Part shown: piece by piece, positions 1,234 through 27,500 of the stretch | Layout of the letters: the number at the start of each line of letters is the position of its first letter | How positions within the stretch are numbered: the first letter of the stretch is position 1 | Origin: a virus | Taxonomy: Duplodnaviria; Caudoviricetes | Strand: one strand, 5' to 3' | Virus record (IMG/VR): IMGVR_UViG_3300031965_000097 | Coordinates: 1 to 35,560 of that record | Length of the DNA stretch: 35,560 bases | Position numbers and translations under genes: made by a program | Notes under the pieces: generated by a model | What the model saw: only the letters and a program-made list of their open reading frames with translations | Databases searched by the model: none | Told to the model about the DNA's origin: nothing

Positions 1234-2034
1234 TTAGTTGTATTTATCGTCTGGGTTAGGTCTCCCCATCATTGCATAGTAGGTGACGCGACGGTGTAAC
1301 GGCAAATCGCGTGCTTCTGCATCATGCTCGGACAACGGGGCGCTTTTCCTTTCGGGGGTTGATTGGATAAATGCCTTTGTTGTTGTGAAGTCTTGGCGCT
1401 CGATTGTCTCAAACATGGGGATTTTTATACCAAGCAGAGATTCGTAATAAGCTGCTACTTGGTCCAGATAAACAGCATTGGTGAACCATTCTTCAATGCT
1501 CTCGGCTGTTTCTTTGCCTGGGACTTCATAGCCTAGCAATATCGCGTTATTTGTTTGCTGTTTGCGGAGTGGTAAGTTACCGCTGAACAGGTCATGTGTA
1601 AAGAAATGAATACTTTCTTCTAGTGTGTGGTCTTTCATGTAATTTAACAGAGCGGTTCCCTCACGCTCATCTTTATTACCAAAGAATTCTTTATACTTCT
1701 GGCAATTGGTTTTAGCTATGATTTGCTGCTTTTGCTCTTTCTTTTCCAGACTTGCGTATAGGGCTCTTGTTGTTGGAGCGAGCTCTTTTGGATTCATACG
1801 CGGTCGGCCCATTGTTTGCCCGGTGTCACCGTATGGGTTGGGCTTGTTGGGGTCGGACTTGTTATTGGATTTGTTGGAGTTATTAGAGTTAGGTTTGGGA
1901 CATTGAGAAATTTTAAACTTGATTTCCTGTATGACGAACTGAATGCGTTTTACTTCCAACTTAGCTTTTTCTAGGTTGGAAGACTCTTGGGTTAGTTGTT
2001 CGGTTAGTTGTTCTCGCGTATTTGGCTCATCCAT
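1234..2034 (-). CDS. Hypothetical protein with N-terminal coiled coil and GRPR motif
   Basis: Long ORF; likely start MDEPNT at 2034 with GGGA SD. Confidence 0.7.
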   Translation of the reverse strand: MDEPNTREQLTEQLTQESSNLEKAKLEVKRIQFVIQEIKFKISQCPKPNSNNSNKSNNKSDPNKPNPYGDTGQTMGRPRMNPKELAPTTRALYASLEKKEQKQQIIAKTNCQKYKEFFGNKDEREGTALLNYMKDHTLEESIHFFTHDLFSGNLPLRKQQTNNAILLGYEVPGKETAESIEEWFTNAVYLDQVAAYYESLLGIKIPMFETIERQDFTTTKAFIQSTPERKSAPLSEHDAEARDLPLHRRVTYYAMMGRPNPDDKYN

Positions 2035-2079
2035 GATTGGTCCCGTTAGGTTAATTATGAATGCTAATGCTAACACGCT

Positions 2080-2340
2080 TAATAAAGTATGTGTACTTTA
2101 TTTTTCGTTTTGGTTGCGGGTAGTTACTTATTAGGGGTGTTTTAGGGGGCTAAAGCAGCTAAAATTAGCAGTTTAGCGGTTAGCCGCTAAATACCCCCTT
2201 ACATATTCTAAGTAAGTACACCTAAAAATTTTTTTAAAACGACTTACTTAGTATATAAAAAAATCTGGGTGTTAATAATTACTAATAATACTAATAATAT
2301 ACTACTATACCCTTTATAAACAACAACTTATCCCCATTAT
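2080..2340. other. AT-rich non-coding region with inverted and tandem repeats; candidate replication origin or control region
   Basis: TTTAGCGG/CCGCTAAA (2172-2191), TAAGTAAGT/ACTTACTTA (2209-2250), TAATAATAC-type tandem units (~2273-2310). Confidence 0.4.
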
Positions 2341-2379
2341 TGCAGCATTAAAGTCATGTTAATGCGATAGAACATCACA

Positions 2380-2402
2380 AATACCCTCTGTCACAGGGTA
2401 TT
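2380..2402 (-). promoter_or_regulatory. Hairpin with conserved GUGACAG loop (copy 1)
   Basis: + strand AATACCCT CTGTCAC AGGGTATT, perfect 8-bp stem. Confidence 0.7.
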
Positions 2403-2414
2403 AATTATGTCTAT

Positions 2415-2762
2415 TCAGTCCAGGTGACCGGGCAAACAATACAGCAAATCATCTTGGTGGATCTTCCCACTTTGGGACAAATCGTTTATCGCAGCGTTCA
2501 CATTTTCAATGTTGAAATCCGTAGCACATTTTCGGCAATATTCCCTCAGCTTTTGGATAGTCTGTGGACCATGAAGTTTCAAGCTTGCTTGAACAGCCAT
2601 TATGCAAGGATAATGCAGAGTAGCTATTGGATCTTGTCGAGTCCTGTTGCTACCACGCAACCGCTTCACCTCCGCTTGCAATACTTCAACGACTTCCATG
2701 ACTTCATTGAAGGTTATAAGCCCTGAACGATTGTACGTCATTGCTTCTTCTAAAGTTTTCAT
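2415..2762 (-). CDS. Hypothetical protein, possible C-terminal winged helix
   Basis: 115-aa ORF with AAGGAG SD. Confidence 0.7.
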   Translation of the reverse strand: MKTLEEAMTYNRSGLITFNEVMEVVEVLQAEVKRLRGSNRTRQDPIATLHYPCIMAVQASLKLHGPQTIQKLREYCRKCATDFNIENVNAAINDLSQSGKIHQDDLLYCLPGHLD

Positions 2763-2777
2763 AATCTATTACTCCTT

Positions 2778-2993
2778 TTAATAAGATTTTAATTCAGACC
2801 GCAAAAGAGCAGCTCGCTTCTGGAAATATGCTTCATTCCGAAGAGCTTCTCGGGCTTTATGAGCCTCAACCGCAGCGCACATATCGTAATGTGTGGTTAA
2901 CCTTTCCATCTGCCAGCATTTAATCCTAGTCGCGACAGGTTTCACTGCCAAGGCTAATAATTCAGGTACATTGATTATGGTTTTTGTCTGCAT
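2778..2993 (-). CDS. Hypothetical protein (MQTKTIINVPELL...)
   Basis: Start re-assigned to ATG 2993, preceded by AAAGGA. Confidence 0.65.
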   Translation of the reverse strand: MQTKTIINVPELLALAVKPVATRIKCWQMERLTTHYDMCAAVEAHKAREALRNEAYFQKRAALLRSELKSY

Positions 2994-3031
2994 TGTTGGT
3001 CCTTTGTTAAACGCTGGGCAAGCTTGTAAAA

Positions 3032-3050
3032 GGGTTAGGGTAGGGTTGGG
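3032..3050 (+). other. Canonical G-quadruplex motif GGGTTAGGGTAGGGTTGGG
   Basis: Four G3 runs with 2-3 nt loops, intergenic. Confidence 0.6.
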
Positions 3051-3114
3051 TATTACCGCGCTATAAAAACAGCTTGCCGGGTGCTTGCCGTGCGGGCAAA
3101 TGGGGTTTGTGGTG

Positions 3115-3393
3115 CTAGGGAAGGTTGCCGTTTGTGTAGTACGGTAAATCTCTGTGCAATTCATGCGGATCGGTACACAGGATTTGTTCTTGTATTTGGA
3201 TGACAACGAGATACCAGACTAAAGCCATGTGCTGGTCATTATTTTCTTCCAGGCGCTTGATGTGCTCTTTGTCGGCCAATTCGAGAATAACTTCATTGGT
3301 TATACCGTTTCGAATGAGGCAATCAAGAATGTCATTTGCTTGTTCAATGCGGCCTTTGAGATCGATCGCATTGAAGCGTTTTGCATTTACCAT
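3115..3393 (-). CDS. Hypothetical protein
   Basis: 92-aa ORF with AAGGAG SD. Confidence 0.7.
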   Translation of the reverse strand: MVNAKRFNAIDLKGRIEQANDILDCLIRNGITNEVILELADKEHIKRLEENNDQHMALVWYLVVIQIQEQILCTDPHELHRDLPYYTNGNLP

Positions 3394-3396
3394 AAT

Positions 3397-3546
3397 TTAC
3401 TCCTTAGATTTGATTTTGGAAGCTTCCTCGAGGGAAATCCGGGTAACGCCACGTACAATGCCACGGAAGACCCAACGAACAACTATAGCGCCGACGACAA
3501 TCCCGCCAATTATGATGACAAAACCTAAACTAGCGTCGCTGTTCAT
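3397..3546 (-). CDS. Small single-pass membrane protein (MNSDASLGFVIIIGGIVVGAIVVRW..., 49 aa)
   Basis: Manual translation; AAGGAG SD at 3555-3560; hydrophobic stretch then basic tail. Confidence 0.65.
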   Translation of the reverse strand: MNSDASLGFVIIIGGIVVGAIVVRWVFRGIVRGVTRISLEEASKIKSKE

Positions 3547-3775
3547 GTTCTTTACTCCTTGAGGTAAAATAAGCTACACGGAAGGCGAGCCGTGCCTCGT
3601 TGTAACCTTCATGATAAGCACGATCGGCTTCGATTCGGTCAGTTAAACAGCTTTCAGCAGCCCTGGCCTTACGAAACCAATCATTTTCGAGATAGTATAA
3701 TTCATTATCATGTGCGCAAAGAGCATTGGCAGCTCGTTCCCCACATCCGCAATAAACTTCTGGGCTATGATTCAT
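3530..3775 (-). CDS. Hypothetical protein
   Basis: 81-aa ORF with AGGA SD. Confidence 0.6.
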   Translation of the reverse strand: MNHSPEVYCGCGERAANALCAHDNELYYLENDWFRKARAAESCLTDRIEADRAYHEGYNEARLAFRVAYFTSRSKEHEQRR

Positions 3776-3832
3776 ATTATTTTCCTAAGCGTAGACCATG
3801 CGCGACCAATTGCCGCTAAGTTGGGTGGTCAT

Positions 3833-3881
3833 CCACTGACGCCCGTGAGGGCGTTTCGTCGTTACCGACTCATCAGAGTGG
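3833..3881 (-). ncRNA. Type I hammerhead ribozyme (HH-A)
   Basis: Minus strand CCACU CUGAUGA GUCG-GUAA-CGAC GAA ACGCCC-UCAC-GGGCGU C AGUGG: full core, three perfect stems, GUC site (cut between 3838 and 3837). Confidence 0.93.
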
Positions 3882-3883
3882 AA

Positions 3884-4510
3884 TTAGAACTTCGGGAGTG
3901 TTCCGAAACCCGGGTTCCAAGCAGCTTTTTCTTCATGGACAGCATTGATTCTCGGCAAACGGCCTGAGACACCGTTGAAAGCGCGCCAGCGAGCGTATTG
4001 CGTTTTAATAGTGTGTTCGTTTACGTCCTTGGTAGCCGGGTCTCCCTTCAGAGCGGAGATGGTTGCCACCGCACCGTGCTGGCTGTTGGTGATTTGATCG
4101 GCTGCTTCCCAAATCTTACCACAGAGGGTGTTCGCCGCAGGGCGCGTAATGCCATTTTGTTGCACTTTGTCCGCTCTTTGGGGTTTAACTTTCGCAGCCG
4201 GGCCAGTAATATTGTACTTGGCTTTCAGTTCTTCCAGTTCTTTGTTGAACTGTTCCCTTGCAGCGGGCGGAGTTTCCAAAGACGGGCTAGGGGCCACCGG
4301 AGTGCTGAGTTGTTGAACAGCAAATGCCATGCTGTCAACATTTGCGCGGCGTTCGCCTTTGCGCTGATCTTCGGTTACCGGCTGCACATCACCCTTCGGT
4401 TCTTCCAGCGGAGCTTCTTTCCCGAACAACTTTTCAGACTTGGCAATTTGAGCTTTGGTGGGGCCTTTTGCCTTAGCTTTGGAGCTAGGGGCAGCTTGAG
4501 TTTTAGACAT
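3884..4510 (-). CDS. Hypothetical protein with Lys/Pro-rich N-terminus and C-terminal helical, probably DNA-binding, domain
   Basis: 208-aa ORF, AAGGAG SD; C-terminus resembles the 7413..7805 protein. Confidence 0.85.
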   Translation of the reverse strand: MSKTQAAPSSKAKAKGPTKAQIAKSEKLFGKEAPLEEPKGDVQPVTEDQRKGERRANVDSMAFAVQQLSTPVAPSPSLETPPAAREQFNKELEELKAKYNITGPAAKVKPQRADKVQQNGITRPAANTLCGKIWEAADQITNSQHGAVATISALKGDPATKDVNEHTIKTQYARWRAFNGVSGRLPRINAVHEEKAAWNPGFGTLPKF

Positions 4511-4666
4511 GATGTGACTCCTTAAAATGCAGCATACACTATTAGTAGCTGCGGGTTAGGTGCTGAATGCACCGTTAAATAGTACAACTACAGCATCGCA
4601 CAGAGTTGGCGTTTGCGCAAACTAATTCGCTTCAGTTGTTACAAATTAAATTGTAACAGTGCGATG

Positions 4667-4858
4667 CTATTCAACGTAAGGGTCCGGAATGCCTTCTTCT
4701 ACATCCGTTAAATCAACGTTCGTGATTGCGAATTTAGGGTTGTAGACAAAAGCGTCCGTCGGCTTGCCCTCTAACAGACATTGGGTCAGCTCTTCCGCAA
4801 AGTCAGCCGCGCTGGTATGATCGTCGACTAGAAACTTTACAACTAGGTATTTCATCAT
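4667..4858 (-). CDS. Small acidic hypothetical protein
   Basis: Start MMKYL with AGGAG SD at 4861-4865. Confidence 0.7.
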   Translation of the reverse strand: MMKYLVVKFLVDDHTSAADFAEELTQCLLEGKPTDAFVYNPKFAITNVDLTDVEEGIPDPYVE

Positions 4859-4876
4859 AGCTCCTAAGTGGTACAT

Positions 4877-4926
4877 CCACAGACCTCCTCGCGGAGGTTT
4901 CGCCGTCTAACGGCTCATCAGTGTGG
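4877..4926 (-). ncRNA. Type I hammerhead ribozyme (HH-B)
   Basis: Minus strand CCACA CUGAUGA GCCGU-UAG-ACGGC GAA ACCUCC-GCGA-GGAGGU C UGUGG: full core, GUC site (cut between 4882 and 4881). Confidence 0.93.
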
Positions 4927-4933
4927 TTAAGAT

Positions 4934-5101
4934 TTACAACAGATCGAAAACGTAGTCCGGTTCCAACCCGAACTCGTCGTGCAGGATTTCTTCCGGGTCT
5001 TCACCTTTTGCAACGCGACGTTTGGCGTCGTCGATCATGCTTTGCGCATCACGTTGTGACATTTTATCACGACGCATGATCGTTTTAAGTAGACTTTCCA
5101 T
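4934..5101 (-). CDS. Small phage hypothetical protein (MESLLKTIMRRDKMS...GEDPEEILHDEFGLEPDYVFDLL, 55 aa)
   Basis: Manual translation; TAATG coupling with the upstream gene; MRRD...FGLEPDY pattern recalled from phage hypotheticals. Confidence 0.8.
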   Translation of the reverse strand: MESLLKTIMRRDKMSQRDAQSMIDDAKRRVAKGEDPEEILHDEFGLEPDYVFDLL

Positions 5102-5238
5102 TATTTTTTCCTTTTGTCACTTGCAGGTTTGAGATGCCAACCAAGTCGGCGGCGGATTTCCTCTTGTGAGGGAATCGGTAGTCGTGACTGTGAACGTCGC
5201 CGCATGTAGACACGAATAAGTTCTTTTGCAGTAGACAT
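5101..5238 (-). CDS. Small basic protein of 'PSxEEIRRxLGW' type
   Basis: Start MSTAKEL with AGGAG SD; similar to 15725..15871. Confidence 0.75.
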   Translation of the reverse strand: MSTAKELIRVYMRRRSQSRLPIPSQEEIRRRLGWHLKPASDKRKK

Positions 5239-5308
5239 AATTCTACTCCTAAGACAGTGCAAAGCGCACTCAGTTGACTGCTGTTGCCAACAGTCAAGAA
5301 AGTTGCTC

Positions 5309-5491
5309 TCAGCTGACTTCACGTTCGATGAACTTACGTAGCACCTTGGTCATTGTTGTGCCGTGCTCAGCGCATTTGGCCAAGAATGCTTCTTTAAGTT
5401 CAGCCGGGATACGAATGTTCAGCGGTACAGTTTGTTCCGCTTCGTCATTTTCGTATAGTTCATTGGATGCTGCCGGAATAAGTTTTGCCAT
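5309..5491 (-). CDS. Ribbon-helix-helix (Arc/CopG/ParG-like) DNA-binding protein
   Basis: PLNIRIPAELKEAFLAKCAEHGTTMTKVLRKFI fits the RHH pattern; AAGGGA SD. Confidence 0.8.
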   Translation of the reverse strand: MAKLIPAASNELYENDEAEQTVPLNIRIPAELKEAFLAKCAEHGTTMTKVLRKFIEREVS

Positions 5492-5530
5492 GATGGTTCC
5501 CTTGATTAGAAGTAGATGCAAAGCGCATCC

Positions 5531-5555
5531 GCAAGCTATCTGTCACATAGCTTGC
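5531..5555 (-). promoter_or_regulatory. Hairpin with conserved GUGACAG loop (copy 2)
   Basis: GCAAGCTAT CTGTCAC ATAGCTTGC, perfect 9-bp stem. Confidence 0.7.
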
Positions 5556-5567
5556 AGCAGTGCTTTA

Positions 5568-5819
5568 TTACTCTTTAAATGGTTCAACACAAATTATGGT
5601 GAACCAACCATTTCCTTGTAAAGAAATCTCTTCCATTGCTTCTGTTAAGTAGTCTGCTTGCTCCAACCAGTTAAAACAAGTAGCATTTTCTACAGTGGGG
5701 AAGTAGCTTCCTACTTCCCTATTCCAAAATCCATGTTCTGTTTCAATTGCAAACTTAGTTAGCTTTGCTTGTTCTTGGAACTTGTCTTTTGCTTCCAGTT
5801 TATCGGAATGTATGCCCAT
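5568..5819 (-). CDS. Hypothetical protein
   Basis: Start MGIHSDK with AAAGGA SD. Confidence 0.7.
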   Translation of the reverse strand: MGIHSDKLEAKDKFQEQAKLTKFAIETEHGFWNREVGSYFPTVENATCFNWLEQADYLTEAMEEISLQGNGWFTIICVEPFKE

Positions 5820-5830
5820 AATAATTCCTT

Positions 5831-5891
5831 TCAGTATATGTACCCTACTATTAAGATACATATACATGGGTCCTGTCACGACCTATGTATA
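5831..5891 (-). promoter_or_regulatory. Double-hairpin leader element (GUGACAG loop plus UUAAUAGUAG loop), copy 3
   Basis: Homologous to 6663-6721 with stem substitutions that keep pairing. Confidence 0.7.
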
Positions 5892-5894
5892 GCA

Positions 5895-6089
5895 TTATTT
5901 AAAAGTCACCCACAAGCGGTAATCTTCAAAATATTTTTCAATGTCAGTTTCTTCTATTTCAATTTCTTCTGCTTCAGAGAAGCTAGCAAATGCATCATCT
6001 GCTTCTAATGCTCCTTCTAAGTATTCGTCCACTTGGTCTAATTCGCAATCACGTTCAAACAGTGCGTTGCGTAAATTAATTTTTGCCAT
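5895..6089 (-). CDS. Very acidic small protein (20 of 64 residues D/E); DNA-mimic candidate
   Basis: ORF with AGGAG SD; composition. Confidence 0.75.
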   Translation of the reverse strand: MAKINLRNALFERDCELDQVDEYLEGALEADDAFASFSEAEEIEIEETDIEKYFEDYRLWVTFK

Positions 6090-6111
6090 GTCATGCTCCT
6101 GTATGTTGTTA

Positions 6112-6165
6112 ACATATGCACACTACAATAATGCGCATATGTATAGTGCCTGTCACTACCTATGC
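6112..6165 (-). promoter_or_regulatory. Degenerate double-hairpin leader element, copy 4
   Basis: ACATATGC..CTACAATAA..GCATATGT then CTGTCAC at 6150-6156. Confidence 0.5.
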
Positions 6166-6174
6166 TAACTGCTT

Positions 6175-6366
6175 TTACTTTTCAACCAAATCACCATTTT
6201 CATCAATTTCACAATTAATGCGTTCCAAAAGGTCATTCAGCACGTCACCAGTTTCATCCTCAAGTATGCTGCACAAACTATATGCAACTTCTTTTTCTTG
6301 TTTTGTGCTATTCACGTCAAATGTGTTTAACAGTGTTTCAGCAATTGCTATTTGTTGGGTATTCAT
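6175..6366 (-). CDS. Small acidic protein (15 of 63 residues D/E)
   Basis: ORF with AAGGAG SD. Confidence 0.75.
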   Translation of the reverse strand: MNTQQIAIAETLLNTFDVNSTKQEKEVAYSLCSILEDETGDVLNDLLERINCEIDENGDLVEK

Positions 6367-6450
6367 AATGTTGCTCCTTAGTACAGGTTAAACTGCAAAG
6401 CGCAGTCATAAGCCACCTGCTATCAAGTAGCTTATAAAGTGCTTTACTGC

Positions 6451-6651
6451 TTACATGTAGTAATGTGCAAATTGTTGCACTACCTCACCAACTTGGGCCT
6501 TGTTAATTGTTTCAGGCAGCTTGTGCGCTGTTATGTAGTCAGCAACTACAAGCTTACGTGCGGCCAGTTCATTTTTACTATCAGCTGCGTCACGTTGCAC
6601 ACCATCAGTTACGTTGCTTACATTTAGCAATAGTTCAAATGTGTTAATCAT
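6451..6651 (-). CDS. Hypothetical protein (MINTFELLL...)
   Basis: Start re-assigned to ATG 6651, GAGGAG SD. Confidence 0.7.
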   Translation of the reverse strand: MINTFELLLNVSNVTDGVQRDAADSKNELAARKLVVADYITAHKLPETINKAQVGEVVQQFAHYYM

Positions 6652-6662
6652 GGTATTACTCC

Positions 6663-6721
6663 TCAGTATATGCTGGCTACTATTAATCAGCATATACATG
6701 CCCCCTGTCACGAGGTATGTA
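6663..6721 (-). promoter_or_regulatory. Double-hairpin leader element, copy 5
   Basis: GTATATGCTGG CTACTATTAA TCAGCATATAC; TACATGCCCC CTGTCAC GAGGTATGTA. Confidence 0.7.
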
Positions 6722-6844
6722 GCTAACCGGCACATTCAAGTAGCTTATTGTATGTGTTGCGGTAGCATGTTACACCATGTAGCAGTTTTAGTGCTTACGC
6801 GTATAGGTAATGTTTTATGCTTACTAACTTTAGGTTAGCAGTTG

Positions 6845-6961
6845 TTATACACCTTGTAATACTAAGGTAGCAGTACGTTTATATACACCATTAACATGGT
6901 AGTGCATAGTATGTGCAATGTTGCTATACACACTATGCGTATAGGTTGTTAAATAACGCAC
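6845..6961 (-). CDS. Possible 38-aa D/E-free peptide (MRYLTTYTHSVYSNIAHTMHYHVNGVYKRTATLVLQGV)
   Basis: GTG start preceded by TAAGGT at short spacing; SD lies in a CGCTACC/GGTAGCG hairpin. Confidence 0.3.
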   Translation of the reverse strand: MRYLTTYTHSVYSNIAHTMHYHVNGVYKRTATLVLQGV

Positions 6962-7044
6962 GCTACCTTATACCGGGTAGCGGTGCAGCACATTGTTATG
7001 CGTGCTGTTTTAATGCGCTGTTGTGCGCACACGGTTTATTACAA

Positions 7045-7311
7045 TTATACGCTTACCACGCTTGCATACAAGCGCATGTTGTTTTTAGCAATATGCGCTG
7101 TTGCTTGTGTGCGTGTAGCAAAAACAGCATACAGCGTACCGTTACCTGTTTTGCTTTTGTTGCTTGTATACCCTTGCAACCTACCTGCAAAACCCTTGCT
7201 TACTACATAAAACATGTTACCTGTAGTAGTGCTAGGTGCGTTGTTAGGTGTAGTAGTGCGTAACCCTAATGCAACGGGTTTGCGCGTACCTACAATAAAT
7301 GTACGTTGCAT
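7045..7311 (-). CDS. Basic early protein with no Asp/Glu (88 aa)
   Basis: ATG with AAGGT SD at 5-nt spacing; flanked by hairpin intergenic regions. Confidence 0.7.
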   Translation of the reverse strand: MQRTFIVGTRKPVALGLRTTTPNNAPSTTTGNMFYVVSKGFAGRLQGYTSNKSKTGNGTLYAVFATRTQATAHIAKNNMRLYASVVSV

Positions 7312-7412
7312 GGTATACCTTATGGTGCGTTATACATGTATATACACTATGGTATGTACATACATGTATGCACTACCCCCCCCCTAATGTGGGGTAGTGC
7401 TATACGCTTGCA

Positions 7413-7805
7413 TTATTGCGCAGCTACGTATGCACGCTTAGCGTTTGCAAACTGCGTTGCTGCGGTAGCAGGGTTAATACCTGCTGCTTTGCAAGCTGCA
7501 AGGGTAGCTGCGCGGTTGTAATTGTTTGCTGCTGCAAGTGCGCGTACCTGCGCACATGCACCGCTTTGCGCACTTGGTGCATGCTTTTGTGTACCTGCTA
7601 CGCTGCGCACACTAAGGGTAGTAGGTGCAGGTACACCATACTGTGCTGCAAGCTGCTGTACTGCAAGCATGTATGCTTGCTGGTTATGCGCTTGTGTTGC
7701 TGCTACATGTGCAGCAAGTTTTGCACTACGTGCACGTGTACGGTATGCGTTGCTAACTGCTGTTACGCGTTTTGCGCGTGTTAGTGCGTGTTGTTTGGTA
7801 AGCAT
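7413..7805 (-). CDS. Ala-rich basic early protein with no Asp/Glu (130 aa); C-terminus paralogous to 3884..4510
   Basis: AGGGGT SD at 5-nt spacing; SGACAQVRALA...GINPATAATQFANAKR aligns with NTLCGKIWEAA...DVNEHTIKTQYARWR. Confidence 0.8.
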   Translation of the reverse strand: MLTKQHALTRAKRVTAVSNAYRTRARSAKLAAHVAATQAHNQQAYMLAVQQLAAQYGVPAPTTLSVRSVAGTQKHAPSAQSGACAQVRALAAANNYNRAATLAACKAAGINPATAATQFANAKRAYVAAQ

Positions 7806-7886
7806 GCTAAACCCCTATAAAGTTGTATATACAAGTGGTATTGCTACTTGGTACATACCTGCTGTAATGCTGCTAGGTATGTACAC

Positions 7887-7914
7887 AGTATATACCTAGT
7901 ACAGCTACATACAA
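7887..7914 (-). promoter_or_regulatory. Candidate leftward sigma70 early promoter
   Basis: TTGTAT-16-TATACT on the minus strand upstream of 7805. Confidence 0.35.
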
Positions 7915-8208
7915 TGGGTTTATATACAGTAGTATGTAGTTCTGTTATACAGGTTAGCTATATAGCTTATTACTTTTAGCTATATGCAATGTGCAATGCG
8001 CATGTGTAGGTACGTATATGCAATACGGTTTAAACGCATTTTAAGGTACATTACAGCACATTACGGTATGTGTAGCTAGGGGTATAGCTTAGTACGCTTG
8101 CGCTGCGTATAGCGCGTTTTGGTGCGTTTGTGGGTGGATGCAAGAAGTGGACCAGGCTGTGCTGTAAGTAAATTGGGAAGTGAGTGCCCACTTCGGGGTA
8201 CGGCCACA

Positions 8209-8264
8209 TACCACAAAGGTAGACTTAGTGCGATCTATCATATCTATCTACCACAAAGGTAGAC
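8209..8264 (+). repeat. 16-bp direct repeat TACCACAAAGGTAGAC x2 with ATCTATC sub-repeats
   Basis: Copies at 8209-8224 and 8249-8264; ATCTATC at ~8233, 8242, 8273, 8390. Confidence 0.85.
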
Positions 8265-8486
8265 ACTATGAAATCTATCTAGAACATCAACTTTGTCATA
8301 CAACCACCTGACCCCCCCCCCATCTCTTTAATAATTCCACTCTACCGAACACCAATCCTAAAAAAAAAATAGGAATACCCATAAGAACGATCTATCATAA
8401 GCAATAATTGGACCAGTCTAATTATCCTCTGCGAGAGCCACCAAATTGCACCATCAAACCATCCAAAATCCTATAAAATATATTGC

Positions 8487-8516
8487 TTGCAACTCATATT
8501 GCTTGTGGTACATACT
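8487..8516 (+). promoter_or_regulatory. Candidate rightward promoter
   Basis: TTGCAA-18-CATACT; predicted start coincides with the base of the 8523-8643 stem. Confidence 0.4.
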
Positions 8517-8522
8517 GCATTA

Positions 8523-8643
8523 CCTGCTAGTAACCACAAAGCAAGGAGAGTCACTCTTAGGAAGAGAACTCAAACTTGTCTACATGCAAGACGCCGTTCG
8601 ACAACAGTCCAGCGTCTCCTCTGTAGTGTGGTCATCTAGCAGG
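8523..8643 (+). ncRNA. Candidate structured RNA or 5' leader of the thyA operon
   Basis: Nested pairings CCTGCTAG/CTAGCAGG, ACCACA/TGTGGT, AGGAGA/TCTCCT plus internal hairpins. Confidence 0.5.
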
Positions 8644-8689
8644 CCCTAAGACCGTCTTAACCCAGCCACCGTCTCCGTAAAGGAATCAA

Positions 8690-9547
8690 ATGAAACAATA
8701 TTTAAACCTGCTGCAAGACATCCTCCATGACGGGATACGGCAATCGAATCGTACAGGGATTGACACACTCACCCTGCCCGGTGCAATGCTCAAGTTCGAC
8801 CTGCGAGAAGGCTTCCCTGCCGTAACCACAAAGAAGCTCGCATTCAACCAAGTCAAAGGTGAGTTAATTGCCTTCTTGGAAGGGACCAGCTCCCTAAAGC
8901 GATTTAAAGACCTGGGCTGCAATGTGTGGGATGCAAATGTCAATGCGCTAGGTTGGCTTACCAACCCTCACCGCGACACGCCAGACGACATGGGGCTCAT
9001 CTACGGCACGCAGTGGCGAAATTGGTCGGACGGGATTGGGGGTAGCATCGACCAAATCCAACTTGCACTTGACACAGTCAGGAACAACCCAACCTCCAGA
9101 CGGATCATTGTCAATGCGTGGAATCCTGCTGAACTGGATCAAGCTTGCTTGCCTCCGTGTCATGTGCTGTTTCAATTGCTACCGCACGTCGAGTCCAAAA
9201 CCCTGCATATGACAATGTATCAGCGATCATGCGACATGTTCTTGGGTGTACCGTTCAACATCGCTAGTTACGCATTGCTCTTATCCTTGTTTAGTGCTTG
9301 GACAGGATATAGTGCCGGAACGCTCACCATATTTCTAGCCGATGCTCACATTTACGTCAACCATATTGACCAAGTTAAAGATCAGCTCGATCGCAGACCT
9401 TTACCTCTACCTGAGTTAGGCTTGTCCTTCCCGCATGATCCGGAACAATTACCTTTGGACATTTTACTCAAGTGGTTGAGGCCGGACGATATTTGCCTCC
9501 ACGGCTATCAGCACCATCCTGCAATCAAAGCTTCTATGGCGGTTTAA
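8690..9547 (+). CDS. thyA: Thymidylate synthase
   Basis: RTG, FPAVTTKKL, LPPCH and YQRSCDMFLGVPFN motifs. Confidence 0.97.
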   Translation: MKQYLNLLQDILHDGIRQSNRTGIDTLTLPGAMLKFDLREGFPAVTTKKLAFNQVKGELIAFLEGTSSLKRFKDLGCNVWDANVNALGWLTNPHRDTPDDMGLIYGTQWRNWSDGIGGSIDQIQLALDTVRNNPTSRRIIVNAWNPAELDQACLPPCHVLFQLLPHVESKTLHMTMYQRSCDMFLGVPFNIASYALLLSLFSAWTGYSAGTLTIFLADAHIYVNHIDQVKDQLDRRPLPLPELGLSFPHDPEQLPLDILLKWLRPDDICLHGYQHHPAIKASMAV

Positions 9548-9548
9548 T

Positions 9549-9734
9549 ATGCAAATCTCACACCACCCTGACACTTGCGAGATCATCTCGAACGAGGTTC
9601 TGCAAATCCTTGCAGACGCAGTCTTCGAAAAAACTGGACGGAAGCCGCTTCCTGACAGCGTGACTTTCAATGCGTACCACGGGAACAAGAAGATGATTGT
9701 AACGTTCACACTTCAGGACCCGGAGATCAAATGA
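9549..9734 (+). CDS. Hypothetical protein
   Basis: Tightly packed ORF; ATGA overlap with the next gene. Confidence 0.6.
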   Translation: MQISHHPDTCEIISNEVLQILADAVFEKTGRKPLPDSVTFNAYHGNKKMIVTFTLQDPEIK

Positions 9735-9934
9735 CTACGCAGATTCGTACGGTTCGGCAAGTCTGGCATTTCAGCCCTCCACCTGAGGACTCACGCCATG
9801 CCCCTATGCAGTTGCTCACAATCGCAGGCATCGGTGTTCAGGGCGAGTGGTGTGGTCAAATGGGTGAGCATTACTCCGCGTGGGCGCCTCTCACCCAAGG
9901 TAACGTCGAAGCTTACCAACGCAGTTTTAATTAA
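9731..9934 (+). CDS. Hypothetical protein
   Basis: GGAG SD, ATGA coupling. Confidence 0.65.
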   Translation: MTTQIRTVRQVWHFSPPPEDSRHAPMQLLTIAGIGVQGEWCGQMGEHYSAWAPLTQGNVEAYQRSFN

Positions 9935-9945
9935 ATCCTAACCAC

Positions 9946-10242
9946 ATGAATAAGATCGAACATTTATTGCTCTGTCTGGCTGAAGAAGCCGGAGAAGTGG
10001 TGCAAGCTGCTGGTAAAGCTGGTCGATTTGGCCTCAACGACCAACCTAGCCCTGACAAACTGTCGAATAATGAATACATTGTCCGTGAAGTCAATGATGT
10101 ATTAGCTATCTTGGAACTTTTGAAAGAGGAAGGTGTTGACCTTCAAGGTATCGGTCGTCACCTAGACATTCAACTCAAAAAAGAAAAAAATGAAAAGAAT
10201 GATGACTTATTCACAAATTTGTGGCACACTTCAACCAAATAA
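9946..10242 (+). CDS. MazG-like nucleotide pyrophosphohydrolase (C-terminus possibly frameshifted)
   Basis: LAEEAGEVVQAAGKAGRFG...EVNDVLA, MazG ExxE...ExxD pattern. Confidence 0.8.
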   Translation: MNKIEHLLLCLAEEAGEVVQAAGKAGRFGLNDQPSPDKLSNNEYIVREVNDVLAILELLKEEGVDLQGIGRHLDIQLKKEKNEKNDDLFTNLWHTSTK

Positions 10243-10251
10243 GGAACAATA

Positions 10252-10524
10252 GTGAACGACCAACCTAAAGAACCAATGAAAGAAGAGCCTGGTCCCGCCT
10301 TTAGCAAACAAGAGCTCGAACAGCGTCGGGCCGGTGCTAACCTTATCCAAGCTCTTAAAGATGCAGATAAGAACTTTTTGCTGCGTGTTGATAAGAACTT
10401 TTTGCTCCGTGTTGAAATGATCAACTATCAATCCAAAGAGATCCGTGTTAAATACGAGGCTTGCTTAGCTCAAGGGTTCAGCGAGGCGCAAGCGATTTTC
10501 CTTTCAACTCAACATTGGACCTAA
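10252..10524 (+). CDS. Hypothetical protein with internal 8-aa duplication
   Basis: AAGGA SD; DKNFLLRV x2. Confidence 0.7.
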   Translation: MNDQPKEPMKEEPGPAFSKQELEQRRAGANLIQALKDADKNFLLRVDKNFLLRVEMINYQSKEIRVKYEACLAQGFSEAQAIFLSTQHWT

Positions 10525-10525
10525 G

Positions 10526-10768
10526 ATGAATAAGACTCAACATCCTACTAATAATGGAGCCTTAGGTGCACCTAAGGATTGGGGCCAAAAAGATCTAAGT
10601 TGTGGCGCTTTGCCAATCACCAGGACTGAAATAGGGCATCTTGCTGCAATTAAGTCGTATTGGAAGCCTACCAAGAAAGAATTGATTGACCTTAATAATG
10701 GTGCCCCAGTTTGTCTGTGGGTTCTCAGCGATAAAATGGCTCCTGTCGCGTTATCTGTGGAGGAATAA
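10526..10768 (+). CDS. Conserved phage hypothetical protein
   Basis: GAPxxW..CGALP..SYWKP pattern; packed in the operon. Confidence 0.75.
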   Translation: MNKTQHPTNNGALGAPKDWGQKDLSCGALPITRTEIGHLAAIKSYWKPTKKELIDLNNGAPVCLWVLSDKMAPVALSVEE

Positions 10769-11215
10769 ATGAGGCTCTCTGACGACTCAGCATCAGACTT
10801 GTTCCATCTCATTTGCGGGCAAATGATTGGGGAAGGGCAATATAGACAGGTCTTTGAACACAGTTTGGATAAAACCAAGGTGATGAAGCACGATAGCGGA
10901 AAGAACTGGAGTAACATTAGCGAATACCAGATTTGGGCAGAGTTTCAGAATACTCCGATTGGTAAATGGTTGGCGCCGGTAGATTGGGTTAGTGCCCGAG
11001 GGCTTTGGTTGATCCAAGCTCGTACTACGCCGATTGCAATTGGCGAATTTCCAAAGAGGGTTCCTGCTATCTTTAGCGATCTAAAGCCTTCTAATTGGGG
11101 AATGCTAAACGGGCGTCCGGTTTGCCATGATTATGGGAACCATGCTTTGTTCACGTTAGTCTTAAAAGAAGCTTCCGTGTTAAAACGAGTTGTTTGGGAA
11201 CATGAGGCGACATGA
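10769..11215 (+). CDS. Minimal protein kinase-like protein
   Basis: IGEGQYRQVF (Gly loop), VMK, E, DLKPSNWG (catalytic loop), HDYG (DFG-like). Confidence 0.75.
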   Translation: MRLSDDSASDLFHLICGQMIGEGQYRQVFEHSLDKTKVMKHDSGKNWSNISEYQIWAEFQNTPIGKWLAPVDWVSARGLWLIQARTTPIAIGEFPKRVPAIFSDLKPSNWGMLNGRPVCHDYGNHALFTLVLKEASVLKRVVWEHEAT

Positions 11216-11607
11216 TGAAGCCAGAAGACCTTGCAAAGCCGGGTACAGAACATGCTCATCAAGTTGCTCTTTTCTGTTGGATGTCACAACAATTTGACAA
11301 ATGGCCTGAACTCAAGTGGGCTTACGCTATTCCTAACGGTGGTGAACGGAATGCCGCTGTGGCTGGGCGGCTCCGAGCAGAAGGTGTTAAATCTGGTGTT
11401 TCGGACATTTGCCTACCGTTTTCCAAGCGCACCTTTCACGGCTTTTATATCGAAATGAAAAAGCCTGGTAAGCTCAAAACAGAATCCGCTAATCAAAAAG
11501 AATTTGGTGCGTTCGTGACCACACAAGGATATTTGTACGCCTGCTTCGATAGTTGGGAGAAGGCGCGGGATGCAATCTCTTGGTATATGACTAACGAGGA
11601 TAAATAA
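11212..11607 (+). CDS. VRR-NUC domain nuclease
   Basis: EHAHQ, AIPNGG, EGVKSGVSD, IEMK, Q..F motifs. Confidence 0.92.
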   Translation: MMKPEDLAKPGTEHAHQVALFCWMSQQFDKWPELKWAYAIPNGGERNAAVAGRLRAEGVKSGVSDICLPFSKRTFHGFYIEMKKPGKLKTESANQKEFGAFVTTQGYLYACFDSWEKARDAISWYMTNEDK

Positions 11608-11609
11608 AG

Positions 11610-11981
11610 ATGGAACTCTCAGAAGAAATGAAAGCTTTGAAGGAGCAAGTTGAAAATCTACTTTCCCGGAAGGGCTCCCCAAAGAACCCTGAAGAGATCC
11701 GCATAGCGTTGAAGGTTATCGACTTCATGATCCCCCACCGAATGCTTCACATTGTAGCAGATAGTCAACGTGTTGCTAGGGATTTTGCAGAGGTAATGTG
11801 TCGACCGTACAAACACATCAAACACCGGGAAGACATAGTAGGCTACAACAAGATCCATGTTGTGGTCTTACATACCGGGCATCGTACAGACCACCAGAAA
11901 GCAAACTATCTGGAAGTCAGGGAGCTTATCCGTATTTACTGCAGAGATGTTATAACCTGGCACATTGGGGAATGGCGTTGA
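11610..11981 (+). CDS. Hypothetical protein
   Basis: 123-aa ORF with GAGG SD. Confidence 0.65.
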   Translation: MELSEEMKALKEQVENLLSRKGSPKNPEEIRIALKVIDFMIPHRMLHIVADSQRVARDFAEVMCRPYKHIKHREDIVGYNKIHVVVLHTGHRTDHQKANYLEVRELIRIYCRDVITWHIGEWR

Positions 11982-12128
11982 CATGAAGCTTGGGCAAAGC
12001 GCTATAAGCTGCGGTGTACCATAGTGTACCTGTACCGCTACCCTGCAAACTACGCGGTATGCCCGGTGCTATACCCTATTTGCCCAACCTTTTAACGGTA
12101 CACCTCCCACACTTTAAGCAAATAAAGC

Positions 12129-12158
12129 TTGCCTTAGTTTTTGCTTCTAACATATACT
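12129..12158 (+). promoter_or_regulatory. Candidate promoter for terminase genes
   Basis: TTGCCT-18-TATACT. Confidence 0.45.
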
Positions 12159-12193
12159 CCAACTAATATTAATTGCATCATTGGAGTTGCGCC

Positions 12194-12721
12194 ATGTCAG
12201 AGCAGCAGACAGACAACATCGACGAACCGGAAGTAGGAGCAGATCTGAGTTTCCGTGAGCGTGCGCTCCGTGACCTCTTTGTCAACGAATATCTAGTTGA
12301 CTACAACGAGTATGCTGCCGCGATCCGTATTGGTTATTCCCAAGCTTACGCAAAGGAATATTCTGTAAGGTTTATGAATGAGCCTTACGTGCTCCAGCAA
12401 ATCCGTTTGAAAGAAAATGCACCGACACCAGACGACTCTGTAGAAGACATGAAAAAAAGAGTGATGACGGGACTGATCCGGGAAGCAAATTATCGTGGCC
12501 CGGGTTGCTCACAAAGTGCCCGTGTAGCGGCCCTGTCCAAGCTTGCAGCAATCCACGGCATGGATGCACCTATCCGTTCGAAAACTGAGATAACTGGGGC
12601 AGACGGGCAACCCTTGAACGGTGGTGTATTTGTCATCCCTGGCGTAATGACTGTTGAACAATGGGAAGCTGCTGCTGCGGAACAGCAGACTGCTCTTGTC
12701 AATGGAACCCCCGCTGCATGA
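12194..12721 (+). CDS. terS: Terminase small subunit
   Basis: FVNEYLVDYN..AAIRIGYS motif, EITGADG tail; GGAG SD before ATG 12194. Confidence 0.92.
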   Translation: MSEQQTDNIDEPEVGADLSFRERALRDLFVNEYLVDYNEYAAAIRIGYSQAYAKEYSVRFMNEPYVLQQIRLKENAPTPDDSVEDMKKRVMTGLIREANYRGPGCSQSARVAALSKLAAIHGMDAPIRSKTEITGADGQPLNGGVFVIPGVMTVEQWEAAAAEQQTALVNGTPAA

Positions 12722-14178
12722 CAGGGTTAATACTACCAAGTCAAGAACTATGCATACCGCAACGCAAGATAATCGTTCCGCCGGTATGGAAAGCGCTGCC
12801 TGGTAGTCAATCTCTCTTTTTGCAGAGCCCAATAAGGGAGGTTTGTTTCGCTGGTACTCGCGGCCCAGGTAAGACAGATGCAATGTTGATGTCTTTCGCG
12901 CAGTATTGCGGACGAGGTTATGGGGATTATTGGCGAGGCGTCATTTTTCGTCGGAACTATAAGCACTTGGACGACATTATCTCCAAGTCGAAACGATGGT
13001 TCAATCGCTCTGCACAAAAGCCTCGATTCTTGGCCGGCTCGAGCTCCCTCAAGTGGGTTTGGCCAACAGGTGAAGAGTTACTGCTTCGCGCTTTCGAGGA
13101 TGAGGAAGATTACTGGTCGTACCATGGACACGAGTACCCTTTCATCGGATGGGAAGAATTAACTAGCTGGCCTTCAATTAACTGTTACGAATCGATGAAG
13201 AGCTGCAACCGCTCTTCGTTCCCCGGAACAGAACGATTGCCGTCTATCCCAAGATTTATCCGTAGCTCAACAAACCCTTACGGTGTCGGACATAATTGGG
13301 TAAAGAATTATTTTATCGATCCTGCACCCTATGGACAGGTTATTCGAGACGGTGAGGGAAATGCTCGAGTATGCTTGTTTGGGTCCATCAAAGAGAACCC
13401 TCACCTAGGTGAAGAATATGTAAAAACCCTTCAAAGTATTACTGATCCCAATAAGCGTAAAGCTTGGCTGGAGGGTAGTTGGGATATTACATCAGGAGGC
13501 ATGTTTGACGATCTTTGGGACGCCAAGAAACATGTTATCAAACCATTTAAGATTCCTTATTCTTGGAAAATCGACCGCTCGTTCGATTGGGGTAGTTCCA
13601 GACCTTTCAGCGTGGGTTGGTGGGCACAAAGCGATGGCACAGACGTTGTAATGGCTGATGGTAGGAGTAGAAGTTTTCCACCAAAGACGTTGTTCCGTAT
13701 CTGCGAATGGTACGGAAGCAGCGGGAAGCCGAATGAGGGTTTGCGGATGACTGCCAAAAACGTAGCGCTCGGCATTTTGTCTCGCGAGATACAGTTCGGT
13801 ATTCAAAACCGAGTGCATCCGGGACCAGCAGATTCTGCGATTTACGCTGTCACAGACGATGCTTCAATCGGGCAGAATATGGAATCGGAAGGCGTCTTTT
13901 GGACGCTTGCGGACAAAAAAGCTGGAAGTCGTAAGAATGGGTGGGAGTTAATGCGAGATCGTTTATCTGCAACAGCAAACGACGATACGGACAAGCCCGG
14001 TTTGTTGGTTTTCGAAACTTGTCGTGATTTTATTCGGACTGTGCCTCCGATTCCTCGTGATCCTAAAGATCCCGATGATGTAGATACAGACGCGGAAGAC
14101 CACGCAGGTGACGATACCCGTTATCGTGTATTAGCTGCTGACCAAGTAGCGCATAAAGTTAGAATTAGTGGAGCTTAA
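12718..14178 (+). CDS. terL: Terminase large subunit
   Basis: Walker A GTRGPGKT, Walker B IGWEE, STNP motif, RNase H-like DWG and EDHAGD; ATGA overlap with terS. Confidence 0.95.
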   Translation: MTGLILPSQELCIPQRKIIVPPVWKALPGSQSLFLQSPIREVCFAGTRGPGKTDAMLMSFAQYCGRGYGDYWRGVIFRRNYKHLDDIISKSKRWFNRSAQKPRFLAGSSSLKWVWPTGEELLLRAFEDEEDYWSYHGHEYPFIGWEELTSWPSINCYESMKSCNRSSFPGTERLPSIPRFIRSSTNPYGVGHNWVKNYFIDPAPYGQVIRDGEGNARVCLFGSIKENPHLGEEYVKTLQSITDPNKRKAWLEGSWDITSGGMFDDLWDAKKHVIKPFKIPYSWKIDRSFDWGSSRPFSVGWWAQSDGTDVVMADGRSRSFPPKTLFRICEWYGSSGKPNEGLRMTAKNVALGILSREIQFGIQNRVHPGPADSAIYAVTDDASIGQNMESEGVFWTLADKKAGSRKNGWELMRDRLSATANDDTDKPGLLVFETCRDFIRTVPPIPRDPKDPDDVDTDAEDHAGDDTRYRVLAADQVAHKVRISGA

Positions 14179-24550: not shown

Positions 24551-27500
24551 ATGGCAACTCCTCCAAGCGGCGGTACGGACATTGTAGCACTAGGTATCAG
24601 TGTTGACACGACGCAACCCGCGGAAGCTGCTGGAGCTTTAGATAAGCTTGGCACTGCTACTGTTAAAGTTGTCAAGAACTTGGACGATCTTAGCAACGCT
24701 ACTGAGAAAAATTCGAAATGGGTATCAGATGCTACCCAAAAATACCAGAACCAAATCCAGGTCTTGGAAGCAGCGTGGAAAGCTGAGCAATCTATGCTCA
24801 ATGCTGAAAAAGACGTTGATAAGATCCGTAGAGCTGCAGTCGGAACCTCTTCTGAACTTATCGCTAAGTTAGAGCAGTTGATTTCTGTTTACGGGTTAAC
24901 CCGCGAACAAGTGATGCGATTGAACGCAGAGCAGCTTAACATGTCTGCAGCAGCTGAGCCGCTCATTGCCAAGCTGGAAGCCTTGAAGGCGGCAACTGCT
25001 CGTTATGGGGCAGGCATCACCGACCTTGCGAGTATCGAGGAAAAAGAACGGTCTGCTGCGATCTCCCTCAATGCGCAACGTATCCGTTCAATTAACGAAC
25101 AAGCTGCTGCTGAAGAGTCTGCGCGCACCTCACTAAATGCGCAACGTATTCGTGCCATCAGTGAACAGAAAGCAGCTGAAGAGTCTGCTGCAACCTCTCT
25201 GCAAGCTTTCAGGCGTCGGACAATGGGGGAAAATCGTGTAGCTGCTATCGCCGAAATTGAGGCAATGGAGGCCGCACGGTTATCAGGTCTTGAACGTGAG
25301 CGATCTCGTGAAGCTGTATTTTCAGCATTCAAGAAACGTACGATCGCTGAGAATCAAGCGGAAGCTATTCGTAAAGCTAAAGAACACGAAGAAGCTGCTG
25401 TCAAGCTTGCAGAGAAGCAAGCCCTCGAAGAGATTAAATGGGCTCAGACCTCTACTCGTGCAAAGATTGCGGAACTGGAGCGTTTAAAAGCGTATCAAGC
25501 AAATACCGCTGTCCGTCCGGAGACAATTAACAGTTCTTTTTCAGGTGCAGCACTAAGAGACCTTGCTAATTTACAAAAGTATCACGATGAGGTTGCTAAG
25601 TCTGCCGGAGTCCACGGTAGAGCTAAAGCAGGGGTTAGTTCCTTTAGCGATTCTGTAAAAAACCTCGGATGGAATGCTCGTGCTTCAACTGAGCTTCTCG
25701 TCCTTGCTCACGAGGCAGTAGAAGGCCGGTTTAAAAGAATGCCTGGATCCTTAATGGTCCTAGGCGAATTTACTGGTGCTGCATCCTTAGCTTTTTCTAA
25801 GCTTGGCTTGGCAATTCTCGGCGTCGGCGCAGCGTTTGTCACATTAAGTTACGCTATTGTCAAAGGTATCCTCGAACAAAAGGCGATGAATGATGCCTTG
25901 ATTTTTAGTGGCAATTACGCTGGGCAGACCGCCGAGTCCTTACTTGGCGTAGCTCGGGCTGCAGCAGATATGTCCGGCTCTATTGGTGTGGCCAAAGAAG
26001 CTGTAATTGCTCTCGCTGAAAGTGGCCGGTTTACAAGTGATCAATTTGCACTTGTGACAGAAGCCGTTGTTGCTTGGGAACACGCAACAGGTCGTGGGGT
26101 AAACAATATAGTCAAAGAATTTGAATCCCTTGCAGTTCAAGCTACTGGCCACACTAAACGTGCCTCTGAGCAGGTGTCTATCAATTTGATGAAACTTAAT
26201 GACACTTATCATTTTACCACACAAGCTGTTTACGAACAAATTCGAGTTTTGGAATTGGAGGGCAAGCAGCGTGAGGCTTCCACCCTTGCCCTTGCCACCT
26301 ATGCTGAAGAAGCGCAGCGTCGTTCTACAGAATCTGCCAACAATCTTGGAAAAATTGAGAAAGCATGGAAGGCGATTAAACATGCAACAGGAGAAGCTAT
26401 CGACTCAATGATGAGTTGGGGTAAGACTGCTGGCCCAATGGAGAAATTGGCCCAAGCCCAAGCTGATCAAGCGAAAGCCCAAGCTGAGCTTGATCGACTG
26501 AATAACGGAGGGAAGGACCGTTTAAGCGCTTCTCGTGAAGCGTTGGCTCAAGAAGCTTTAGCAAAAGCCAATGCTTCTGTTGTAGCTGCTTCTAAAGAAC
26601 TTTTAGGTGTCCAGGAACGTCTCTATGAGCAAGGTGAACGAGCTCGTACGCAAGCAGATGCTATTCATGCTTCTCAAGCTATATTTATGCAACAGCAACA
26701 ACTCCAGCGTAAAAGCATGGGTGAATTGAATTGGACCTTAAAAGAGTATGAAGAACGCATTAAGGTAATCAAGGAAGGCAACCCTGATAGCATCTTGGTA
26801 AGCGATGAAGCTGTTGCTGACATGATTGCCGCTATTACAAAAGCACACACTCAAACTGTCAAAATTGTCCGCGATGGGCGTAAGCAACAGCTCTCAGCCC
26901 AAATGGAAGGTGCAACTGCGGAATATAATCTTACAAAGCAAGCCACGGAGACTAACGAGAGACTGTTGTCTGAAGCTTACCGAGCAGGTGTGGTCATGAG
27001 CGATAGCTATTACTCCGCTCTGAGAGAAGGGCGTGCAGATGAGCTACGTGCGGTTGACCGTGAATATATAACAAAGATTAAATTCTTAGCTGACTTCAAG
27101 GCAAAGGGCAACGATGAAAAAGAAGAAGTAAAACGCCGTCTGCAAGAAATAACTAACGCACATGAGCTTGCAGCGCAACGAATCAAAGATGCAACAGTTC
27201 AAGACGAACTAAAACAAACTAGTGCTAAAAAGAAGATTGAAGACGATTCGGACAACTCTATTGGAAAGTTTTTATCAGATCTGTTAAAAGAAGCAGAAGC
27301 GTTAGAGAATGCTAATCTGGCCCGTGAAAGGTCAAAGTCTGTAATTGAACAGGAAGCACTTGCTAGAACTAACAACGCTATTGCCGCATTGCAAGAGAAT
27401 AGGGCTCGTCAAATTTTAAATGGGGCAAGTGAAGACGAAATTAAGCAGACTGAGAAGCTTATCCTCTACTTGGAACAGGTCGCCAAACTGCGCGGGAGGA

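Follow-up and report, generated by a model that had tools for sequence, protein, structure and literature searches.

The question raised by this locus is why a phage would keep 1.4 kb of its DNA almost free of a few very short words. The window, that is, the whole stretch of 35,560 nt analysed here, contains 2149 GA, 1917 TC, 478 GGC and 381 GCC. A preliminary description had reported no GA, one TC and no GGC or GCC in 1400 nt, and our recount of positions 6738-8137 agrees with it (0 GA, one TC at 7941, 0 GGC and 0 GCC); the second-longest run in the window without all four words is 68 nt. Its estimate of roughly 150-175 expected GA+TC was also borne out, as 1000 base shuffles of the island gave 169.2 ± 10.3 with a minimum of 136. 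Given the island's own dinucleotides, 21.0 GGC and 18.8 GCC (about 40 together) would still be expected and none was observed, which makes the lack of GGC independent of the lack of GA. General palindrome avoidance was ruled out because AGCT, GTAC, CATG, TGCA and GCGC are still frequent in the island, as had been noted (11, 16, 14, 26 and 16 copies, respectively). The missing words had been related to phage CAjan and, in fact, GA and GGC are exactly its two mapped motifs, with dPreQ0 present at nearly all of them according to the accessible text of the CAjan study (PMC7544227). There is almost no CAjan-type DpdA target on either strand of the island. What had been missed is its extension: between 5981 and 8136 the + strand, from which the leftward genes are transcribed, contains a single GA, at position 6712, and TC, unlike GA, keeps its normal density in 5981-6736. 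An assembly artefact is an unlikely origin of the island, because contigs of run X1 (which may be the source run) are identical to the window over 2000-14000, with zero differing letters, and because GA+TC drops at the same landmark, the 11-mer of Table 1, in 11 of 12 relatives, G001 being the exception.

Table 1. Features of the window discussed in the text (strand as in the window).
Feature	Position	Strand	Remarks
Core island	6738..8137	both	no GA, GGC or GCC; one TC (7941) on the + strand
130-aa first gene, opening the leftward block; no Asp/Glu	7413..7805	-	RBS AGGGG (GA-free); conserved in the clade
Second ORF, 88 aa, no Asp/Glu	7045..7311	-	RBS AAGGT (GA-free)
TC-free variant of an element reading CTCTTTAACAA or TTCTTTAACAA in several relatives	6942..6960	-	
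Conserved 11-mer TTTACTTACRG	8162..8172	-	beyond the island edge; GA+TC falls directly past it
Two 31-nt direct repeats	8209-8239, 8249-8279		beyond the island; arranged as the repeats at the 9g pac
Second tier: four small, mostly acidic genes	5568..6736	-	template-strand GA 7 vs 41.1 expected
Repeats containing GTGACAG	upstream of genes at 6711, 6156, 5879, 5546	-	four copies, 5546-6721
208-aa paralogue of the island protein C-terminal domain	3884..4510	-	normal GA/TC and Asp/Glu; related to CAjan gp46
GA/TC-free 120-nt patch in the leftward block	3001..3120		
GA/TC-free 120-nt patch before terS	11986..12105		place conserved across the clade

The window is a siphovirus fragment in which small leftward genes extend up to 7805, followed by rightward genes in the order thymidylate synthase (8690), terS, terL, portal, capsid and tail genes. 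It represents half of the ~68-kb genome of an uncultured soil phage: in run X1 a 13,300-nt contig stops at 7384 and a 54,776-nt contig begins at 7376, and a 68,426-nt contig is recorded for the island protein in a protein collection. Gene order and a deazaguanine cluster in the replication block would fit Queuovirinae, with a TerL ~50% identical to those of cultured phages (all 664 cultured-phage terminase matches are below 60% identity, the best at ~50%), and closer relatives exist in IMG/VR, with TerL 75-86% identical. Neither blastn of positions 6400-8700 nor tblastn of the island protein gave a match among 50,697 cultured phage records; a search for relatives among genome contigs found none, so it provides no host lead, and no RNA datasets containing the stretch are listed.

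The modification genes that the preliminary description had in mind were found, as a piece of dpdA in the phage's own genome and as folE, queD, queC and queE in relatives. The own dpdA, known from a single 161-nt piece of the gene, lies in the continuing 54,776-nt contig (depth 22.6) and matches inside the dpdA of relative G004 with 26 differences (84%); its strand and its distance from terL (~29 kb) are those found in relatives, and this sequence evidence indicates that the genome of this phage carries dpdA. DpdA was present in all eight clade contigs of at least 48 kb; 11 shorter fragments were searched and had none. It is 61-67% identical to that of CAjan and 56-61% to that of Pseudomonas phage iggy. 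In relatives G001-G005, G011 and G012 the genes folE, queD, queC and queE adjoin dpdA; none of these four is among the 8 listed of the 46 own-genome pieces that match the G004 cluster. QueF matches were obtained in five of five relatives, three inside folE ORFs and two at the folE position, and a Pfam search of 72 proteins of G002 and G011 detected no further conversion enzyme (QueF, Gat-QueC or ArcS). As the QueF matches fall at folE, dPreQ0 is the predicted modified base of the clade. A 97-kb contig (G035:C1:86516-89643) contains three distant dpdA-like genes in tandem.

To see how far the gap extends, every dinucleotide class was scanned in 400-nt windows over 39 genomes or contigs. For GA/TC, log10 P was below -12 in seven of 13 clade entries and between -5.5 and -7.6 in four, with G001 at -4.1 and G012, whose contig does not include the first gene, at -2.8. 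Outside the clade, iggy reached -9.9 and the other DpdA phages -2.2 to -5.6; the best windows of CAjan (-5.0) and phage 9g (-4.5) are in this range and neither phage has an island. The idea that the island is universal in DpdA phages was rejected, since only one of these 18 phages (iggy) passes log10 P -6. An island in non-modifying relatives had been named as evidence against self-avoidance, and none of the eight dpdA-less controls shows one (log10 P -2.0 to -3.1); these controls are distant (TerL ~45-50%), three of them are less than 95% complete, and the clade has no dpdA-less member. Sliding-window counts over the genome and its relatives, as had been proposed, show that the island recurs, and it is a clade trait of varying strength, from absolute in the window to almost none in G001. 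Two AC/GT-poor windows were also observed, at G012:C1:501-900 (log10 P -13) and G036:C1:8001-8400 (-10), the former likely due to the composition of an Ala/Lys-rich gene adjoining queE.

The preliminary description placed the first genes of the phage in the island, and it does hold the first genes of the leftward block. According to synonymous resampling, each of the two island ORFs should contain ~8 avoidable GA and 13-17 avoidable TC, and both have none. Across ten first-gene orthologues the observed/expected ratio was 0.34 for avoidable GA, 0.40 for TC, 0.43 for GGC and 0.50 for GCC, with the control AG/CT at 1.05 in the same genes. The 208-aa gene and its paralogues served as an internal control, and in six of these paralogues the purged words were at 0.75-1.23 of expectation. 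Amino-acid composition was rejected as the cause because synonymous sites are purged too, both in the resampling and in the orthologues, and the purge is maintained by selection acting on DNA. In the orthologues it is strand-symmetric, which led us to discard a strict template-strand rule for the first gene. The family of the 130-aa protein has 61 members, 30 of them without Asp or Glu, and these two residues make up 1.5% of all positions in it. Ribosome-binding sites free of GA (AGGGG, AAGGT or AGGTG) are found in the window, G002, G005, G008, G009, G011 and L021, and AGGAG is used instead in G003, G004, G006, G007, L013 and L133. The 88-aa ORF, which had only a self-match in the protein search and a weak match to phrog_4050 (E 8.7e-4), is likely a genuine gene. 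At locus L026 (5600-6729, relative G016) the landmark is followed by an island that lacks both a homologue of the 130-aa gene and any clear ORF, so that the purge does not depend on that gene.

The element at 6942..6960, which several relatives carry either downstream or upstream of the first gene, keeps its TC in seven relatives; the window, G005 and L013 have a TC-free form within their islands. It resembles the consensus of rrn boxA. A scan for sigma-70 promoters gave 5 sites vs 8.1 expected, none of them within the island.

Beyond the island, the second-tier genes have 14 avoidable GA on the coding strand vs 20.8 expected, and the bias against GA in their template strand has a P of 0.002 in the window, for genes picked after the pattern was seen. 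This template bias is present in two of 13 genomes, the window and one gene in G008, and not in the 11 other relatives. The GTGACAG repeats, which contain GA, lie upstream of these genes and may be sites for a phage activator; one copy lies at most 2.5 kb past the landmark in nine of 12 relatives. In 14 of 18 clade loci, and in none of four outgroups, the DNA ahead of terS contains a run without GA or TC that exceeds the 56-nt maximum of a null derived from coding DNA. This clean patch measures ~50-150 nt across the clade, amid otherwise GA-rich DNA, and is likely a late control site; its counterpart in the leftward block is likely a control region. As the terS patch is far from the landmark or any end, entry order cannot be the whole story, and the readers of control DNA seem to need unmodified G irrespective of it. 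Elsewhere in the window, an AT-rich intergenic region (2059-2331) has two GA/TC-free runs of 102 and 67 nt before a 280-aa gene, and the tape-measure gene (24551-30664) has 73 coding-strand GGC vs 107 expected.

The landmark is exact and single in 10 of the 14 relatives covering the region, has one mismatch in two and is absent in two, and no exact copy was found in 26 genomes outside the clade. In 12 relatives, mean GA+TC per 100 nt was 12, 8, 11 and 12 in the intervals before it and 4, 4, 4, 2, 3, 3 and 3 in those after it, and returned to usual values by 1.0-1.4 kb past it; in G001 it does not drop (19 before vs 22 after). The contig of G001 was opened with the 11-mer inside its 127-nt overlap and the ends of the G002 and G004 contigs are 251 and 235 nt away; the contig ends of G003, G005 and G011 are not near it. 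These contig ends, together with a layout like that of the 9g pac, suggest that the 11-mer probably marks the packaging start or a genome end. The last-packaged end of a genome as a rule enters first. With terminal redundancy, a copy of the island would lie within a few kb of that end, and it is on this probable packaging start that the term "entry region", used for the island from the beginning, would depend. A contrast in contig depth at the poly-C break 7376-7384 (30.5 on the left vs 22.6 on the right) would agree with terminal redundancy across the leftward genes, but it was not counted, because a single depth value for each contig does not give a copy number. Outward of the landmark, positions 8290-8400 carry tracts of poly-G and poly-T on the minus strand as well as GATAGA-type repeats, which also occur in G003, G004, G008 and G009 and may be an origin or a terminase loading site. 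A near-palindrome around TTTAAA (8027-8040) was seen 17-157 nt past the landmark in the window, G002, G005, G007, L013 and L026, and a match to the Tad3 (Thoeris inhibitor) family lies near the contig end opposite the island in G002 (L096:12065-12595).

The island protein is basic and Ala/Gln-rich. Its structural model consists of a 55-residue N-terminal helix and a three-helix C-terminal domain (helices 21-31, 36-45 and 50-67, pLDDT 89); Foldseek hits were mostly HTH or homeodomains with E of at least 3.8, which is not significant. Pfam, PHROGs, ESM Atlas and fold searches gave no name to the protein, with a best ESM Atlas value of 0.87 to unnamed viral clusters, and no PDB sequence matched it. 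The three-helix domain has several paralogues per genome and a weak likeness to CAjan gp46. The 130-aa protein is likely a DNA-binding regulator with a predicted HTH-like fold.

We consider it highly probable that the purge is caused by avoidance of the phage's own DpdA targets; that the transcription machinery is the reader being served is, in our opinion, an even bet. Our main reading, with a probability of roughly one half, is that the island is a start-up unit kept from being modified so that host RNA polymerase could read it. DpdA would introduce a 7-deazaguanine (predicted dPreQ0) in the remaining genome, with GA and GGC as its presumed targets like those of the CAjan enzyme, and the island would probably stay unmodified. 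If the landmark is the packaging start, the island would be within the terminal redundancy. The modified G could hinder RNA polymerase and other DNA-reading proteins, and what are probably the first genes would be transcribed by host RNA polymerase at a time when no phage protein has yet been made; the 130-aa product, presumably a DNA-binding regulator, could then activate genes in modified DNA. The RNA polymerases of E. coli and B. subtilis are reported to be inhibited more strongly by 7-ethynyl- and 7-vinyl-7-deazaguanine than by other bases carrying an ethynyl or vinyl group, with the block at initiation and not at elongation (PMC4838386, accessible text). By analogy, the ethynyl group may be likened to the cyano group of dPreQ0. 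A block at initiation explains clean promoters but not the clean coding sequence, the lost Asp/Glu or the rewritten ribosome-binding sites.

The clean terS patch, the template bias of the second tier and the inhibition by 7-deazaguanines were counted in favour of transcription, together with the absence of a phage RNA polymerase: no such family was found among the 72 ORFs that remain, out of 132 listed for two complete relatives, when structural and opposite-frame ORFs are set aside. Against the start-up unit we counted that CAjan, with GA and GGC nearly fully modified, and 9g have no island, that its strength ranges from absolute to almost none with template bias in two of 13 genomes, that no sigma-70 consensus promoter lies inside it and that the HTH fold matches are not significant; the annotation or accessible literature of CAjan and 9g contains no hint of transcription trouble. 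The dodge of self-modification proposed in the preliminary description is partly supported, by the presence of dpdA, the matching motif words and the lack of islands in dpdA-less phages, but it is not general, as CAjan and 9g do without one.

A different reader could be a defence system. The unmodifiable island would shield the first-expressed unit from defences that attack 7-deazaguanine, such as Dag1/Dag2-type glycosylases and END or GmrSD-family nucleases, until a phage product protects the remaining genome. This would account for the purge of the entire coding sequence on both strands, the cheaper template-only purge next door, the uneven strength among relatives and the absence in CAjan. 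Dag1 removes the modified G and cleaves the DNA of dPreQ0 phages, with escape via dpdA loss (bioRxiv 10.1101/2025.10.29.685425, accessible text), hypermodified phages encode END inhibitors (PMC12191111, accessible text) and, in Autographiviridae, restriction escape is reported to be decided by motif absence in the first-injected region (PMC12455610). However, a shield leaves unexplained the conserved clean patch of ~50-150 nt before terS in GA-rich DNA, and the island protein is basic, belongs to a three-helix paralogue family and matches no known inhibitor family in Pfam or PHROGs. The remaining genome would also have to wait outside or be shielded, and we know of no stepwise entry in this phage group. 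We regard this explanation as somewhat unlikely; both defence and the reading by RNA polymerase may operate.

The region could also be kept unmodified as a terminal repeat or packaging start, for terminase cutting, repeat duplication or circularisation, its genes being purged merely through lying there. The stepwise beginning of the purge at the 11-mer, its length of ~1 kb, near the 1091 bp of the iggy repeat, and the contigs of three relatives that open within 251 nt of the 11-mer fit this. We nevertheless find it improbable, as the purge ends with transcription units (0.6-1.4 kb) and not at a fixed distance, goes on along the template strand only, spares the GA-rich repeats and homopolymers that lie outward of the 11-mer and is missing at the mapped pac of 9g. 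A gap unrelated to DpdA, arising from a basic protein rich in Ala and Gln, from the structure of the RNA or from composition at the locus, is hardly credible and already largely refuted: basic DNA-binding proteins are naturally poor in Asp/Glu, and Ala/Lys-rich genes give AC/GT dips elsewhere in these genomes, but the purge also affects synonymous positions and non-coding DNA, both mapped CAjan motifs coincide exactly with the missing words, the iggy gap follows iggy's own different motif and the controls have no gap.

Extending the start-up unit for host RNA polymerase to the whole clade, it is possible rather than probable that these phages carry a sequence-encoded exemption system, in which a start-up module placed at the end of the genome, together with control patches in other places, is written without their own modification words; the host would begin by reading a gene, and the product of this gene, devoid of Asp/Glu, would license transcription of the modified DNA. 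If this were true, the missing words would reveal the modification motif, the first genes and the packaging start of an uncultured phage from sequence alone, and the approach could predict DpdA motifs and genome ends for other uncultured phages. It also bears on how host machinery reads heavily modified phage DNA in the first minutes, and the island suggests that a cost of hypermodification is paid in sequence, as an Asp/Glu-free protein and altered ribosome-binding sites. Phage iggy, which is cultured and has a mapped motif, permits a direct test.

Among known systems, CAjan (Seuratvirus, Queuovirinae) shares with the relatives of this phage the set of dpdA, folE, queD, queE and queC, with DpdA 61-67% identical. 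Unlike this clade, CAjan lacks an island and its longest GA/TC-free run is 81 nt; the clade itself, with genomes of 68-95 kb, is uncultured, and its TerL is ~50% identical to that of Queuovirinae-type phages. Phage iggy, with dPreQ0 at GA only and a 1091-bp direct terminal repeat (PMC10484667, accessible text), has a GA/TC-poor zone, at 59,950-60,628 plus 1-120 of its record, where leftward small genes and rightward genes diverge as they do in the window, ~5-6 kb before terL. This zone contains 21 GA/TC vs 76.9 expected and 46 GGC/GCC vs 23.9 expected, so that iggy loses GA/TC but keeps GGC, matching its GA-only motif. Unlike that of the window, the zone is weaker and mostly non-coding and retains GGC; the accessible text of the iggy paper and one supplement (PMC10484667) do not mention a GA-poor zone or give a position of the repeat. 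In phage 9g, the mapped pac cut has two direct repeats beside it, leftward packaging and ~3 kb of redundancy (PMC5567051, accessible text). The landmark of the window lies at the same kind of divergence, and the 9g cut is ~5 kb before terL; in contrast to the window, the 9g pac shows no GA/TC purge, and the 11-mer is absent from 9g.

A word locally missing from the first-expressed region and present elsewhere has been described in Murciavirus (PMC12455610), and in the first-step region of T5-like phages a word is likewise locally missing (PMC10644984), according in both cases to the accessible text. In those phages, unlike here, the avoided word is a host restriction site; GA and GGC are DpdA motifs, and the phage very probably avoids what its own modifying enzyme would act on. 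Furthermore, the avoided words have two to three letters here and the purge reshapes amino-acid content and ribosome-binding sites. To the extent of the open literature, and of the accessible text of the CAjan, iggy, 9g and BASEL (PMC8594841) papers, a region purged of the phage's own modification motif has not been described, and the nearest described pattern is the absence of restriction sites in first-injected DNA (PMC12455610, accessible text). What is new here is a local motif avoidance in which the thing avoided is very probably the phage's own enzyme, together with the template-strand-biased purge in the next four genes and the GA/TC-free patch before terS.
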